Assembly (NCBI GenBank): GCA_013375475.1
Contig: JABXKD010000015.1
Location: forward strand, 1 to 53,065
From: Promethearchaeota archaeon
GTDB taxonomy: Archaea; Asgardarchaeota; Lokiarchaeia; Sigyniarchaeales; SOKP01
DNA length: 53,065 nucleotides
Direction: 5' to 3'
The notes under the pieces were generated by a model. The model was not told the origin of the DNA and did no database searches. It saw only the letters and a list, made by a program, of their open reading frames with translations. A program made the position numbers and the translations under genes. Shown here piece by piece: positions 932 through 12,923 of the stretch (positions are counted from its first letter, which is position 1; every line of letters starts with the position of its first letter).

Positions 932-1669
932 TCACTTCCCCTTCCTTCTATTTCGATTTGCATATTCTTGTATATCTTCAAGGACCATTTCTTTGTCATA
1001 ATCAGGCCACAAATCGGTCCGAAACTTAAATTCCGCGTAGGAAGCATCCCACAATAAAAATCCTGAAATTCTTGCTCCATCTTCCATTCCTGTTCTTATG
1101 ATATAATCAACTTCAGGAAAATCACAAGTATAAAGACAACTTTTAACCATATTTTTATCAATATCGTCTACTTTTACACCGCTTTTAATAATTTTTTTTA
1201 CTGCATCAACGATCTCTTCCTGACCATCATACATTATGCACAAATTAATAAAGTTCTGGTCGTTTTCTCTCGTAAATTCAATTAATTCATTAATCTTCTT
1301 TTGAACTGCTTCTGGTAATAAATGTACTCGTCCAATTACATTAAAATTAACTTTTTCTTCTTTAACAGTTGCTTCCTGAATTACAGCATCAACTGCGTCT
1401 AAAATTATACGGAATATATATTTAATCTCTTCTTCGCTTCTTTTTTTTAGATTTTCAAGCGATAAAGCGTAGATACTTAAATAATGAATCCCAGCTTCAA
1501 AAAAATCAAATAATCTCTCTTTTAAATTCTGGTATCCAATTAGATGGCCAACATTTGCACCAAGCAGATTTTTCGTTGCCCAACGTCGGTTTACGTTTAA
1601 AAGTGGTAATCACATTTAAATTCCGTCCAAAATTAATCCAACGTGTTTAGGCAATTTATCTTCTGCCAT
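932..1669 (-). CDS. uppS: cis-prenyltransferase (UppS family), 235 aa after removing a 30-nt insert (exon 1 1669..1621, exon 2 1590..932)
   Basis: Hand translation: MAEDKLPKHVGLILDG|NRRWATKNLLGANVGHLIG...IYALSLENLKKRSEEEIKY...IIRTG..RISGFLLWDASYAEF..LWPD..RNRRKGK. The UppS motifs, including the C-terminal RxG, are intact. The ORF track shows only the last 103 aa. Confidence 0.93.
1591..1620 (-). other. Putative bulge-helix-bulge (BHB) intron in uppS mRNA
   Basis: Minus strand TTTAAATGTGATTACCACTTTTAAACGTAA carries in-frame TAA and TGA. Central helix ACGG/ACGU (3 of 4 paired), bulges AA^U and AA^A, inner stem UUAAA/UUUAA plus GUG/CAC, outer exon-exon helix UUGG/CCGA. Excision gives GAC GGA AAC CGA CGT (DGNRR). 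Confidence 0.8.
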
Positions 1670-1872
1670 TCTTTTTTGATCTTCCAAACCTATTTGACTC
1701 TTTAAAAGATGATTACTCTTTTTGTGATTCTTATAATTATAAAATGCTAGAAGACATATTATAATTTTGATTTCTATTAAATCTTGTTAAAATAGTTGCT
1801 ATGCTCCTTGGGTTAAGTTAGATTATTTATTTGAGGGAAGAGGTAGAAATACAAGCAAAAAATATAATTGAA

Positions 1873-3114
1873 TTATTCGATTGAGCCTAAAAATTTTTTC
1901 AAAATAAGATCGTGGAGGCCGTGAATATTTTTTTGAATATCGTAAAAGTCATATTCAATGCCTAATCTTGATTTAAGTAGGGTAGGAATATGATCAATAT
2001 CAAAAAATACAGGAATTATTGGTTTTCCTATCGCTTCGGCAGCCGTCCACTCCTTCTTAACGGGTACTGAATTAAGTGCGTTTTTGGAACAGAATAAGAC
2101 TATGATATCACATTTGTTAAGGTTTTCATTCATATACTCAAATATATTATCATCCATGTCCTCTTCCCAGTAAAGAACATCTTTTATCTCTTGGAAATTA
2201 GTGAGCATTTTAACTATTTCATGTATTTTGAATAAGTTTACATCTTTTGTTGCATAACTCACAAATATTAGTATCCTGTGTTGTATTTCATTACTAATTG
2301 GGATATTCTTGCCAATTATTTCGGTCGGTATAGGTTTTCCTAACATGTAAGAGGCAAGTTCAATCTCTCTTTTGGTAGGTATTTTCTTCTTCTTGGGTTT
2401 AGCAGGTTTATGAGGTTTTAAACCAGAATACATAAACAAAAAAGCAATCAAATAACCAAGTCTAACGAAAATTAAAGCAATACCGGGAATTGCATAACCA
2501 TCAAGTATTCCAAATGTGAGATATAAAAAAAATCCAATTGATAATAATAAATACTTTTTTCTTACTACACCTTTAGATTGAAAGCTTCTTAATAAGAATC
2601 CGAACCCGTTAAAAGTTAACATTGACAACAAAAAAATAACACTCAAAATACCTGCAGGAGCCCCGATCTTAAAAATATCTTCAATTAAATCTTCACCTGA
2701 TTTTGTCGGTGGTATAAATGTATGAGATCCTAATGGATCTAAAAAAATAAATAATTCATAAACTATACCCAAAATTAAATAGATCGGGATAATATACCTT
2801 TTTTTGTCTGGTGTTAATAGTTCAACACCAATATATATCGCAATTAAAAGACCAGGGATTATCCACATACCACCTAAAATACCAAGTAATCCGTATGTGT
2901 TATCCATATTGCTACCCGATAAAAGAATTATTAAGAAATCGTAACTTGATCCTAAATAACAAAGACCACCAAATATAATCATTAATCCTGCATAAAAAAG
3001 GAGCTTAGTTTTTGATTTCTTTGATTTGGATATAAGGAATAATCCAAATATACAACCGAAAATAACAACAACTATTGCTGTGCCACCGGTAATCCAACCT
3101 ACGTAAGAAAGCAT
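1873..3114 (-). CDS. Multi-pass (~7 TM) membrane protein with C-terminal TIR domain
   Basis: Hydrophobic segments over the first ~230 aa, a Lys/Pro-rich linker, then IFVSYATKD...CDIIVLFCSKNALNSVPVKKEW...KPIIPVF (TIR_2-like, conserved Glu present). Confidence 0.85.
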   Translation of the reverse strand: MLSYVGWITGGTAIVVVIFGCIFGLFLISKSKKSKTKLLFYAGLMIIFGGLCYLGSSYDFLIILLSGSNMDNTYGLLGILGGMWIIPGLLIAIYIGVELLTPDKKRYIIPIYLILGIVYELFIFLDPLGSHTFIPPTKSGEDLIEDIFKIGAPAGILSVIFLLSMLTFNGFGFLLRSFQSKGVVRKKYLLLSIGFFLYLTFGILDGYAIPGIALIFVRLGYLIAFLFMYSGLKPHKPAKPKKKKIPTKREIELASYMLGKPIPTEIIGKNIPISNEIQHRILIFVSYATKDVNLFKIHEIVKMLTNFQEIKDVLYWEEDMDDNIFEYMNENLNKCDIIVLFCSKNALNSVPVKKEWTAAEAIGKPIIPVFFDIDHIPTLLKSRLGIEYDFYDIQKNIHGLHDLILKKFLGSIE

Positions 3115-3528: not shown

Positions 3529-5163
3529 TTGCGAATGATTGGCAACGACTATTTATTCAGCGACATTGGCATCGATAGTATAGGTTTTCACGCCCCAAAA
3601 TATTATATAAAATTGGACGACTTAGCAGAATCGCGAAAAGTAGATCCCAATAAGTTTAGTAAGGGTTTAATGGCTCACGAGATGAGAGTTCCCGAGGTTA
3701 ACGAAGATATCATTTCCTTAGGCTTAAAAGCAGGATATCAAGCTTTAAATAAAGGCGGGATAAATCCTAAAAGTATAGACGCATTGTTTGTAGGGACTGA
3801 AACAATAACTTATGCTGTAAAGAGTGTTTCTAATATCTTTGCTGAACTGTTAGAAATATCTCCGAATTCTATAACCCAAGATACATACAACGCCTGTGCT
3901 GGTGGTACACTAGCCCTCCTCAATGCTATTGCTCTAATCGAAAAAGATATCATTAGCAAAGCACTCGTTATAAGTGCTGATATTTCTTCTTATCATTTAG
4001 GTTCGCCAAGCGAAGCAACTCAAGGCTCAGGAGCAGTCGCACTAGTAATATCAAAGCACCCCCGGGTTGCTTCTTTCAGTGAGAAATTCGGGAAAGTATC
4101 GGGAAATGTTGATGATTTTTTTCGCGCTGCTAATGAAAAAGAGGCTAAAGCGTTTGGTCATTATTCGGTTAAAACTTATCTTGACTTCCAATTAAAAGCT
4201 TACGACGATCTTGTTAAAAATATTGGCGATTTTCACGCGGATTATTATACTTTCCACGCACCCTTCTCAAAATTACCTATTAAATGCATGCAAGAGATAA
4301 TTCAAAAACGCTGGATAAAACATATTAATGATCTGCCAAAAATAAATATGAATAATATAAAATCCTCCATACTTAAGAAACTCGATTCTTTTATGCACGA
4401 CATTACAGTGTTACCTGAATGGTTGTATTTGAAGTTAAAGGAGAGAGGTTATTCATCGGAAACGCTGGAAAGTATCTCATATAAACTTATTGGTAATTTC
4501 ACAGAGAAAGTCCTCCCCCAATTAAGAGTTCCTTCCCACTTTGGAAATATGTATAATGCAGCAATTTGGGCACAGATAATATTTATCGCTGAAGAATATG
4601 CAAGGACTAATGACATCGTCTACTTCGGTTCCTATGGCTCAGGGGCTACTTGTATTTCTGGTTTACTAAAATTCAAAAAGGGATTTAGAAAAATCATAGA
4701 CCAATCACCTCACATTAGTGATTTTATTCAAAATAAAGAGCTGAAAACCATTAAAGAATATGAACAGATCAAAACCGGTGAATTCTTACAAAAAACAGTC
4801 TTAGGAAAAATTGTTGAACACGAAAAGAATGATAAAAGAGGATTTACACTTCGGTTCTGCGACGAGGGATGTATCCTCCCAAACATAGAAGGTTTAAACC
4901 ACTGTCCGAAAGGTCACTCAGGATTCCATGAAAAGTTCTTTCCACTATATGCTGTATTAGACTCAGAACCAGTTGAAAATCCTAACGAAAACAACCTAAA
5001 CTACCTTTATAACGGTTTTGTAAGGATAACGGGAGATGTTAAACCAGGAGCTTGCTTAGAATACGAGATCAGGCGCCTTGTAAAAGAAAACGAAACAAAC
5101 TTTAATGCGATTGGTTTATTAAATTGGAGCCCTATGTATTATCCCGTCGATAATATCTACTAA
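3529..5163 (+). CDS. mvaS: HMG-CoA synthase with C-terminal Cys-rich extension (paralog 1)
   Basis: VGTET, NACAGG, HAPFSK, GNMY and SYGSG motifs; ~130 aa extension with CDEGC-x10-CPKGH. Confidence 0.88.
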   Translation: MRMIGNDYLFSDIGIDSIGFHAPKYYIKLDDLAESRKVDPNKFSKGLMAHEMRVPEVNEDIISLGLKAGYQALNKGGINPKSIDALFVGTETITYAVKSVSNIFAELLEISPNSITQDTYNACAGGTLALLNAIALIEKDIISKALVISADISSYHLGSPSEATQGSGAVALVISKHPRVASFSEKFGKVSGNVDDFFRAANEKEAKAFGHYSVKTYLDFQLKAYDDLVKNIGDFHADYYTFHAPFSKLPIKCMQEIIQKRWIKHINDLPKINMNNIKSSILKKLDSFMHDITVLPEWLYLKLKERGYSSETLESISYKLIGNFTEKVLPQLRVPSHFGNMYNAAIWAQIIFIAEEYARTNDIVYFGSYGSGATCISGLLKFKKGFRKIIDQSPHISDFIQNKELKTIKEYEQIKTGEFLQKTVLGKIVEHEKNDKRGFTLRFCDEGCILPNIEGLNHCPKGHSGFHEKFFPLYAVLDSEPVENPNENNLNYLYNGFVRITGDVKPGACLEYEIRRLVKENETNFNAIGLLNWSPMYYPVDNIY

Positions 5164-11401: not shown

Positions 11402-11881
11402 CTATTTAATGTTAAACTTCTTAGACGCATAGAGAAAGCCGAAAGATTTGCCTGGTCCTTTTGAATTGGATGTCTGATGGTGATAAGAATGAGCTTTGAA
11501 TATTCTTTTCATGTAACTACTCTTTGGTTTATACTTAGTTTTAATCCTCCTATGAAACCATACATCGTGGAAAATAAAATACCCCACACCATATAAAGCT
11601 ACGCCTATCCCCATCCAGAACAGAATATTTAATTCTCTTGCATTAAAAAATATCAACATGAAGGATAGTAAGCTGAAAATCCCAGCAAAAGTGTCATTCT
11701 TCTGAAATCTCCCTTCTGTATATCTATGATGATCCTCGTGCAGAAACCAGCCAAATCCGTGCATAACAAATCTGTGGAGGAGCCATGCGACGCCCTCCAT
11801 TGATATAATAGTAAGGATCATAATACCGATGTAAAGCACTATCGCTATCGGAAATGGAAGGTAATCAGTAAGATTTAACAT
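11402..11881 (-). CDS. crtZ: Beta-carotene hydroxylase
   Basis: Four His boxes (HRFVMHG, HEDHH, HDVWFH, HSYHH) and C-terminal SFGFL. Confidence 0.92.
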   Translation of the reverse strand: MLNLTDYLPFPIAIVLYIGIMILTIISMEGVAWLLHRFVMHGFGWFLHEDHHRYTEGRFQKNDTFAGIFSLLSFMLIFFNARELNILFWMGIGVALYGVGYFIFHDVWFHRRIKTKYKPKSSYMKRIFKAHSYHHQTSNSKGPGKSFGFLYASKKFNIK

Positions 11882-12098
11882 AATTATATAAAAAATAAAG
11901 TAAAAATAAAATTTAATCTTATATTATATTGATATAATCTACAAAAATATATCTTTTCGAAGCGATAGTTCGTTTTAAAAGAAGTGATATCAAAAAAATT
12001 TCGAAATTATTTGAGATCATTTTCTGATTGATTTAAGTAAAATTAATATTTTTAAAGCAAATGATATAATAATTAAAAAAAGTTAATCAATTAATAAC

Positions 12099-12923
12099 AT
12101 GGAAATTTCAAGAGTCCATCGTGACATTTTTAAAAAAGGAAGTACGACGTACTTCAATAGCAGTATTTTCTTTCCAAAATCTGTAAGAAGAGATGTTTTC
12201 ATCTTATACGGATTTGTGAGGGTAGCAGACGACTTTGTTGATGCAGTCCCACAAAAAAAGGAGGAATTTCTAAATTTTTGTAACTTGTATAGGCAATCGC
12301 TTTCTGGAAAGAAGACTGATGATTTTATCATTGATTCTTTCGCTGAACTAATGGAAAGAAGGAATTTTGAACAAATTTGGGCTGAAGATTTTCTCCATGC
12401 GATGGAAATGGATCTTACAAAAAGGAATTACGACACTCTAGATGAAACTATTGAATATATGCATGGATCGGCAGAAGTTATTGGTTTATTTATGGCTAAA
12501 ATTCTTGATTTGCCTGAAAAATCATATTTTGCCGCAGAAAGATTGGGAAGAGCGATGCAGTATATTAATTTTATTCGAGATGTTAAAGAAGACAATACTT
12601 TTGGGAGACGTTATCTTCCTTTAAACGGTTATTCTTTAAATAATTTGACCAAAGAAGAAGCAATGAAAAAAAAGACAGAATTTGAGAGATTTATAAAGAA
12701 CCAAATTGACCAATACTTTGAGTGGGTAAAGGAGGCAGAAAGTGGATTTAAATTTATTCCAAGGAGATACTATGTCCCTATTAAGACTGCCTCAGATATG
12801 TATAAATGGACAGGATTACAAATTAGGAATAATCCATTTATCATTTATGATGTAAAAGTAAAGCCTTCTAAACGAAGGATAATATTGAATGTTTTAAAGA
12901 ATTCATTTAGGATTAAAAAATAG
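12099..12923 (+). CDS. crtB: Phytoene synthase
   Basis: GSTTYF, LYGFVRVADDFVD and LGRAMQYINFIRDVKED..GRRYLP motifs. Confidence 0.93.
   Translation: MEISRVHRDIFKKGSTTYFNSSIFFPKSVRRDVFILYGFVRVADDFVDAVPQKKEEFLNFCNLYRQSLSGKKTDDFIIDSFAELMERRNFEQIWAEDFLHAMEMDLTKRNYDTLDETIEYMHGSAEVIGLFMAKILDLPEKSYFAAERLGRAMQYINFIRDVKEDNTFGRRYLPLNGYSLNNLTKEEAMKKKTEFERFIKNQIDQYFEWVKEAESGFKFIPRRYYVPIKTASDMYKWTGLQIRNNPFIIYDVKVKPSKRRIILNVLKNSFRIKK

Follow-up and report, generated by a model that had tools for sequence, protein, structure and literature searches.

How can a gene whose catalytic motif is interrupted by stop codons still specify an enzyme? The question is raised by contig JABXKD010000015.1 of a Promethearchaeota archaeon (Lokiarchaeia; assembly GCA_013375475.1), a stretch of 53,065 nucleotides (nt) that we call the window and whose minus strand carries the cis-prenyltransferase gene uppS at 932..1687. 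Translated as it stands, the gene reads ...LPKHVGLILDG-I*M*LPLLNV-NRRWATKN..., with an in-frame TAA and an in-frame TGA in a 30-nt insert at 1591..1620. Conceptual removal of the insert gives the motif LDGNRRWA and a protein of 241 amino acids (aa). A preliminary description of the locus had given both the interrupted and the restored motif, which translation of the window bears out, and had interpreted the insert as a bulge-helix-bulge (BHB) intron. This interpretation is supported by inserts of 30 nt at the same site in related genomes, by selection on the gene, by covariation in all three helices and by the presence of genes for the endonuclease EndA and the ligase RtcB. From this comparative evidence we consider it highly probable that 1591..1620 is a BHB intron in the pre-mRNA of the only uppS of the genome, spliced by EndA.

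Exon 1 (1621..1687, 67 nt) would extend from a TTG start codon at 1687..1685 to the first base of an Asn codon (...LPKHVGLILDG plus the A of AAC), and exon 2 (932..1590) would provide the last two bases of that codon, 217 more codons and the stop at 932..934. The coding frame is otherwise intact, as first described; the ATG start proposed at that time did not stand, since homologues place the start at the TTG six codons upstream, which gives 241 codons after removal. This start and the 67-nt exon 1 are common to all 13 insert-bearing copies of the window's genus and to 22 intron-less homologues, and removing the insert yields 241 aa in 13/13 of these copies, equal in length and start to the 22 homologues. 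Past the stops of the insert, the frame is open from 1608 down to 932..934. Exon 2 alone (932..1588) matches positions 6-219 of the Pfam model PF01255 (E 4.5e-55), and no ATG, GTG or TTG occurs in the 122 codons of frame downstream of the insert. The gene is the sole PF01255 match of its genome (3.92 Mb in 288 contigs, completeness 100%, contamination 6.4%). A check for the insert in DNA data, suggested together with the intron itself, found it unchanged in window-matching contigs that bridge it, from two sequencing studies, with no joint in the DNA that leaves it out. An Rfam search at the insert site gave no match at E values up to 1, and an nhmmer search of the own genome for further copies of the intron returned only the insert itself, whose sequence is unique there. 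The lack of an Rfam match and the length of the insert speak against a group I or group II intron or another catalogued RNA family: self-splicing ribozymes of these groups are far larger than 30 nt.

We searched 154 genomes of the order, 135 of which had a uppS match, and refer to the window's genus as g1, to a second genus of the same family as g22, to a third genus as g12 and to the genome of the window as G000. In g1, where uppS is present in 39/42 genomes, 12 of the 39 carry a 30-nt insert in the same codon (13 copies, two of them in one genome), 25 have an uninterrupted gene and 2 more are cut by contig ends at the site. In g22, a 30-nt insert is found at the same site in 10 of the 49 genomes with a match, including the single-contig genome G105, and its removal in silico restores a frame of 723 nt in 10/10 holders. 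The insert is therefore present in 22 species-level genomes of two genera (23 copies), to which one second uppS copy in the g12 genome G065 is added. Matches in the three remaining families of the order (18 genomes) cover the full model without exception, in open frames of at least 252 aa. Among metagenome contigs, 32 matched a pattern anchored in the two exons and leaving 20-50 nt free between them: 26 of these are uppS, every one with an insert of exactly 30 nt, and the 6 contigs with other gap lengths are unrelated. The length of the insert is thus 30 nt in 24/24 genome-derived copies and in 26/26 uppS metagenome contigs (50 sequences).

Some individual copies deserve mention. In-frame stops occur in 23/24 genome-derived inserts. 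In the exception, L159 of the g22 genome G100, TGG replaces the TAG of the other holders and the insert has no stop; its BHB pairs are intact, and without splicing the catalytic motif would be longer by 10 residues. The two insert-bearing copies of G014, L031 (G014:C121) and L032 (G014:C173), differ at the free bulge base and may come from two strains in one bin, because contamination of that genome is put at 9%. Two uppS genes, L150 (G065:C1) and L161 (G065:C7), are present in G065, and one of them is an uninterrupted gene of the g12 type. The other is g1-like, bears the intron and lies at the very end of a 490-kb contig; it could result from lateral transfer or from a binning or assembly join.

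By pairwise estimates, both exons are under strong purifying selection in the holders. The ratio of non-synonymous to synonymous substitution rates (dN/dS) is 0.078 at dS 0.88 among the 13 g1 copies (0.20 in exon 1 and 0.07 in exon 2) and 0.092 at dS 1.16 among the 10 g22 copies (0.12 in exon 1). Neither relaxed selection nor another intact uppS, a combination considered at the outset as a possible objection to an intron, was found: dN/dS is 0.08-0.09 and the genome has no other PF01255 match. Since this match is the only one in a genome rated 100% complete, and since dN/dS is low in the holders, the gene is needed. Selection is also visible at the junction itself. In g1 holders, 6/7 synonymous sites of the junction codons are invariant, against 31/154 elsewhere in the gene (Fisher p 0.0006), and in intron-less relatives 0/6 of these sites are invariant. 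The same crude test gives 0/6 invariant sites in g22 holders, where the changes are those that covary in the RNA fold.

In the predicted fold (all positions on the minus strand), the outer helix h pairs 1627..1636 of exon 1 with 1580..1589 of exon 2; its conserved part, 1627..1629 with 1587..1589, adjoins the central helix H. The latter pairs ACGG in exon 1 (1623..1626, the last two bases of the Asp codon and the first two of the Gly codon) with ACGU in the intron (1593..1596), in which the bases of alignment columns 50-51 are invariant within g1. Two bulges of 3 nt are left, AAU at 1620..1622 on the 5' side and AAA at 1590..1592 on the 3' side, with predicted cuts between 1621 and 1620 and between 1591 and 1590, respectively. 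The inner helix h' (1611..1619 with 1597..1605) has a single U.U mismatch in the window and a 5-nt loop at 1606..1610. The pairing first proposed by eye is reproduced in its own register (9/10 pairs in the outer helix, three pairs plus a G.A in the central helix, one U.U in the hairpin). It is also essentially the minimum free energy (MFE) structure computed for a 66-nt stretch, except that the central helix of the latter has three pairs and the first intron U pairs instead. The cut rule that accompanied this fold removes exactly 1591..1620 and restores the frame in silico.

To follow these pairs across genomes we used an alignment of the 24 genome-derived holders (23 distinct sequences), in which the insert occupies columns 25-54; its members were found through the protein, and the set is therefore free of nucleotide ascertainment. 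The search for same-site inserts with covarying stems in related genomes, also foreseen in the preliminary description, was successful in both g1 and g22. The BHB geometry is exact in all 24 copies, with outer and inner flanking helices both present, and the five core pairs form in 23/23 sequences. In the outer helix, 16-58 is U-G in 23/23, 17-57 is G-C in 14 and U-A in 9, and 18-56 is G-C in 22 and G-U in 1; in the central helix, 20-51 is C-G in 14 and U-A in 9, and 21-50 is G-C in 23/23. Both pairs that switch involve codon positions of the exons: 17-57 links the third position of the Leu/Ile codon to the first base of the Arg codon, and in 20-51 the third position of the Asp codon, which is synonymous, is tied to a base of the intron, such that column 51 is A exactly where the exon has GAT. 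The exons read TTG-GAC-GGA-A / AC-CGC in g1 and (A/G)TT-GAT-GGN-A / A(C/T)-AGA in g22, whose intron has diverged.

The inner hairpin covaries most. It is paired in 97.7% of cells in a set of 33 sequences (29 distinct) and in 92.3% of cells in the genome-derived alignment, with 4-5 covarying pairs. Compensatory series are found at 26-48 (U-A/U-G/C-G), 29-45 (A-U/G-U/G-C), 33-41 (U-A/U-G/C-G), 34-40 (G-C/G-U/A-U) and 32-42 (G-C/A-U). A divergent strain in the DNA contigs retains the 30 nt and has a substitution at 1614 that turns the U.U of the hairpin into A-U. Over the genome-derived alignment, 33 cells show two-sided changes in the real structure, against at most 15 when partners are slid by 1-3 columns. 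The bulges behave differently: all four letters are seen at the third base of the 5' bulge (column 25), the first base of the 3' bulge (column 53) is A or U, and column 54 (1591), the last intron position before the 3' cut, has A in 23/23 of these sequences and in 29/29 g1-type sequences. Free positions 25 and 53 and an invariant A54 fit a BHB.

Other folds were considered for the same columns. A CGG/CCG helix between the exons agrees with g1 (99% paired, no column varying) and breaks in g22, so that over the genome-derived alignment 21-57 is unpaired in 9/23 and 18-59 in 10/23. A 3' hairpin of columns 50-53 with 58-61 also breaks, with 51-60 unpaired in 9/23, and its apparent covariation at 52-59 fails in 13/29 g1-type sequences. 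The flanking pairs of g1 are uninformative alone, because they are invariant there and both of these folds fitted equally well; g22 decides between the folds, because the core pairs of the BHB hold there while the two others break. A kink-turn reading of the G.A pairs beside the bulges was rejected by reasoning, their orientation being wrong.

The genome has the enzymes that such a fold would require. It encodes two paralogues of the tRNA_int_endo family, of 200 and 202 aa, as well as RtcB. In the EndA of Aeropyrum pernix, the catalytic triad is Y125, H133 and K164, the substrate is contacted by R157 and W183, and the specificity loop has K44 and R46 (PMC3241643, from the part of the article available). 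The 200-aa paralogue aligns with this protein end to end and keeps all seven residues, and the 202-aa paralogue has a Ser at the position of the catalytic His, as expected if the latter is the structural beta subunit and the former the catalytic alpha subunit. Asgard EndA is described as an (alpha-beta)2 enzyme with an L1 loop (accessible portion of PMC5829648), and the genome of the window is accordingly predicted to encode a broad-specificity (alpha-beta)2 EndA together with RtcB. Aragorn calls introns in 21/43 tRNAs of this genome; their boundaries are imprecise and some calls are spurious, and we did not use them as a yardstick.

Splicing could then proceed as follows. In the transcript, the outer helix would arise by pairing of the two exons, the end of exon 1 (ACGG) would pair with the 3' end of the intron in a relaxed central helix, and the intron's own hairpin of 9 bp would form the inner helix, leaving two 3-nt bulges on opposite strands. 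Archaeal EndA cuts between bulge residues 2 and 3 (PMC2738675, in the sections at hand). The (alpha-beta)2 heterotetramer would cleave each bulge after its second base, and the exons would be ligated by RtcB into GGA-AAC-CGA (G-N-R), giving the 241-aa enzyme with an intact DGNRR. What is directly observed is the anatomy, conservation and covariation of the insert, the selection acting on each exon and the existence of genes for the enzymes; that cutting and joining take place, with EndA and RtcB as agents, we infer.

Several observations weigh against this reading. The end positions of the central helix seldom pair (19-52 in 10/23 and 22-49 in 4/23), most sequences have 2 or 3 of its 4 pairs, and most relatives have a weaker central helix than the window does. 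Only the three bulge-adjoining pairs of the 10-bp outer helix first drawn are conserved across both genera, the distal pairs being present in the g1 register only and in a shifted register in g22. The 66-nt stretch of the window does not fold more stably than chance (z -0.26; 79/200 shuffles fold as well). Relative to the MFE, the BHB is less favourable by 0.2-3.4 kcal/mol in the four g1 sequences that have U at column 52 and by 3.6-6.5 kcal/mol in the nine that have G; the BHB-constrained fold of g22 sequences lies 1.5-7.0 kcal/mol above it, and the BHB is seldom the minimum-energy fold. Because the end positions pair seldom, the energies exceed the MFE and the distal register shifts, the BHB is relaxed and not strict. 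Each compensatory pair outside the hairpin probably stands for one evolutionary event, since both track the g22 clade. The BHB also leaves the C at column 59 without explanation. At this column (window 1586), the third position of the Arg codon that first follows the junction, 27/29 g1-type sequences have C (A in the window, U in G012), in a genome with 32.5% G+C; an exon-exon helix in the spliced mRNA, such as CGG/CCG, or an alternative fold of the pre-mRNA would explain it.

Other points on the same side come from searches. Among the sequencing runs listed as containing this stretch, none was of RNA. No spliced-form UppS product was found among the 120 protein-database matches listed. All 46 of these with at least 80% identity to exon 2 of the window (P0001-P0035 and 11 others) are 197-235 aa long, and the 74 with 75-80% identity measure, without exception, 241 or 246 aa. 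The N-termini of seven of the 46 short proteins were read, and all start in or after the insert; one of them, P0007 (235 aa), was considered as a spliced product and rejected, since it starts inside the insert. Because of these starts the short calls lack the Asp of DGNRR. Some of them bear NCBI product names as if complete. This suggests that uppS of the holder clade is mis-called throughout public annotation. Finally, a crude screen of the own genome for other split genes with BHB folds, a further idea of the preliminary description, did not reveal another mRNA intron, and candidate sites showed no enrichment of BHB-like folds (214 in the real sequence and 249 in a reversed control). The screen covered 3435 stop-to-stop frames of at least 120 codons, 232 of them with at least 30 start-less leading codons, of which 37 also had a loose BHB and an upstream exon; 14 candidates were read and are, by look, adjacent genes or non-coding frames. 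It is insensitive, and uppS is therefore not shown to be the only case. The geometry itself is unusual: the 214 loose folds arise over ~0.94 million tested boundary pairs (~2 in 10,000), and in uppS the fold coincides with the single pair by which the protein is restored. One flagged open reading frame (ORF), G000:C77 ~11785..12312 (-), reads ...CTGCAQTTIAAIFEALGI*NEDVFKAGSGL... with a single in-frame TGA, and 24 nt of it were flagged. We take it to encode a C_GCAxxG_C_C-family-like protein in which these 24 nt presumably encode family-like residues; its TGA seems likelier to be a selenocysteine, a read-through site or a sequencing error than the mark of an intron.

The mRNA might instead keep the 30 nt and be read by programmed ribosomal bypassing (hopping), with take-off at GGA or the next codon and landing 30 nt downstream. 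Bypass elements such as phage T4 gene 60 and the byps of yeast mitochondria need identical or cognate take-off and landing codons. Like them, the uppS insert is a short non-coding gap with stops and a hairpin in an essential ORF: a stop stands one codon after GGA and the hairpin fills the gap. Moreover, the codon before the 3' junction is GGA in 5/13 and GGU in 4/13 g1 copies, matching the Gly codon of take-off, and AAU precedes the stop in about half of the g1-type sequences and could re-pair at AAC. However, and unlike in bypass elements, matched codons are absent from most uppS sequences. In the window, the would-be landing codon is GUA and the codon ahead of the stop is AUU, 4/13 g1 copies have GUW at the landing codon, and 9/10 g22 holders have AUU, AUA or AAA there, with AAU before the stop in none. 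GGN...GGN is thus found in 9/13 g1 but 0/10 g22 copies, AAU...AAC in 0/10 g22 copies, and the window fits neither. The landing-codon columns 52 and 53 also vary freely, whereas 50-51 and 54 are fixed or covary as pairs. Because the mismatched sequences are under purifying selection as well, neither hopping model works across all of them, and we regard hopping as very improbable. Removal from the RNA by another activity, which would recognise the hairpin and its flanks without EndA and RtcB, is distinctly improbable. The hairpin is indeed the best-supported element, the central helix is imperfectly paired and most sequences favour a fold other than the BHB. Yet both the pairs that covary (17-57, 20-51) and those that are fixed (16-58, 18-56, 21-50) occupy exactly the positions that a BHB requires, they create two 3-nt bulges four positions apart, and the textbook cut rule yields the one in-frame product. 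In addition, no other archaeal system is known to us in which short inserts are excised and the ends rejoined, which counts against this alternative.

Could the gene simply be dispensable, i.e., a pseudogene made by a small insertion or a gene whose protein starts downstream of it? Public gene callers do start 46 of the 120 matches listed (197-235 aa) in or after the insert, as read in seven N-termini. Yet there is a single uppS copy, dN/dS is 0.08-0.09 with saturating dS, and the insert is invariant in length over 50 sequences. A gene-killing insert or a downstream start would not fit the constraint on exon 1. Exon 2 of the window offers no start codon for 122 codons, and a product starting there would lack the Asp of DGNRR, which we take to be the catalytic residue. 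A dead or dispensable gene is, in our judgement, scarcely credible. An assembly or sequencing artefact is almost inconceivable: the window does come from a metagenome-assembled genome with 6.4% contamination, but the insert recurs in 22 species-level genomes (23 copies, one of them in the single-contig G105), in the second uppS of G065, in 26 metagenome contigs and in the contigs of two sequencing studies on the window. EndA-dependent splicing of a BHB intron thus seems to us the most satisfactory account of the insert.

If so, what is its history? In a careful tree of 43 UppS proteins (the truncated G043 being left out), the 13 g1 holders form one clade (support 99/96) nested among intron-less genes. 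In a quick tree of 79 proteins (G043 and G065b left out, G049 and G041 unusable), the 23 holders, mixed with intron-less genes, all lie within one clade of 50 rows. On the best tree, 7 changes of intron state are required, and strongly supported branches force at least 3, counts that are rough because they come from a single-gene tree with many unresolved forks. The introns of g1 and g22 are plainly homologous in sequence, and the simplest reading would be one gain in this Lokiarchaeia-like family, followed by long retention and repeated precise losses. We also considered an origin by insertion with a target duplication of 6 nt, suggested by an ACGGAA repeat, and rejected it: early-branching holders of both g1 subclades lack the repeat. 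The exon change from C to U is accompanied by a change at the complementary intron base and not at the same-position base, which also speaks against this duplication.

Two other unusual uppS genes and the surroundings of the window's copy complete the picture. In G019, L039 (G019:C60) encodes 300 aa and matches model positions 1-165 and 145-219 in one open frame; these overlapping matches indicate an in-frame internal duplication or insertion and not an intron. In the g18 genome G080, the sole uppS, L160 (G080:C347, 332..939), is broken into two overlapping frames that cover model positions 1-71 and 135-219, and its middle part is absent, apparently through a deletion or misassembly that has nothing to do with the BHB site. 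In the window, the gene upstream of uppS (1873..3114, minus strand) encodes a predicted membrane protein of 413 aa with a C-terminal TIR domain (PF13676, E 3.9e-11). Beyond it lies an HMG-CoA synthase-like gene (3529..5163, plus strand), which places uppS in an isoprenoid-pathway neighbourhood. A weak Rfam match to a C/D-box snoRNA at 1810..1888 (plus strand; 18 bits, against a gathering threshold of 45; E 0.94) is most likely due to chance.

The intron, if confirmed as such, has several implications. It would make uppS only the second protein gene known with a tRNA-style intron, and a second case, in another gene and in the archaea most closely related to eukaryotes, would imply that splicing of mRNA by the tRNA machinery is no crenarchaeal oddity. 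The two genera would provide a natural experiment, with one gain and then at least 3, probably about 7, changes of state, in which the co-evolution of exon codon choice and intron can be followed, since the motif consists of codon in one half and of intron in the other. Metabolic reconstructions and protein databases would carry a systematic error for uppS, because the public gene calls of the clade appear truncated and without the catalytic Asp; BHB-aware annotation would fix it. One may speculate further that EndA-dependent mRNA splicing is a working and under-detected layer of expression in Asgard archaea, and that the uppS intron has been kept for long (dS ~1) because splicing couples the lipid-carrier synthase to the state of RNA processing. 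We think this rather unlikely; if true, more such introns would be hidden behind shortened Asgard gene calls.

How does the uppS intron compare with known systems? The cbf5 introns of Crenarchaeota were the only BHB introns reported inside an archaeal reading frame as of 2020 (PMC7714728, in the part available to us). Our full-text literature search found nothing on a BHB intron in uppS or in Asgard mRNAs, in agreement with the preliminary description, whose author knew of none. Most likely, on comparative grounds that are well supported, uppS joins the mRNA introns of the cbf5 type. The latter, found in Desulfurococcales and Sulfolobales, are described as 16-44 bp long, placed in the codon of the catalytic Asp, folded into an unconventional BHB and cut by the hetero-oligomeric EndA (available part of PMC2738675). 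As far as this source goes, the likeness is close: a short insert in an ORF (30 nt here), which splits a codon of a catalytic motif after its first base; a relaxed or "unconventional" BHB with predicted cuts between bulge residues 2 and 3; a host with hetero-oligomeric EndA; and a patchy distribution read as gain and losses. The uppS intron differs in lying in a cis-prenyltransferase and not a pseudouridine synthase gene, in an Asgard phylum, and in being known here from sequence alone, whereas cbf5 splicing is backed, in the portions consulted, by cDNA and in vitro cleavage. The cbf5 gene of the own genome is uninterrupted. A second parallel is the HVO_1309 mRNA of Haloferax volcanii, whose 5' untranslated region has a BHB intron that is a substrate of the tRNA splicing endonuclease (PMC7714728, same portion). 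An mRNA is the proposed substrate of this enzyme in uppS as well; unlike uppS, where the intron lies in the reading frame, HVO_1309 has it in the untranslated leader, with a homodimeric host enzyme and an experimental demonstration, as far as this portion describes. Closer in lineage are the tRNA introns of Asgard archaea: the parts of a 2026 preprint on these introns that were available mention protein-coding genes only as neighbours of tRNA loci. Unlike the Asgard tRNA introns with a non-canonical BHB, that of uppS has a protein-coding host, such that the exon half of its motif is also constrained by codons.

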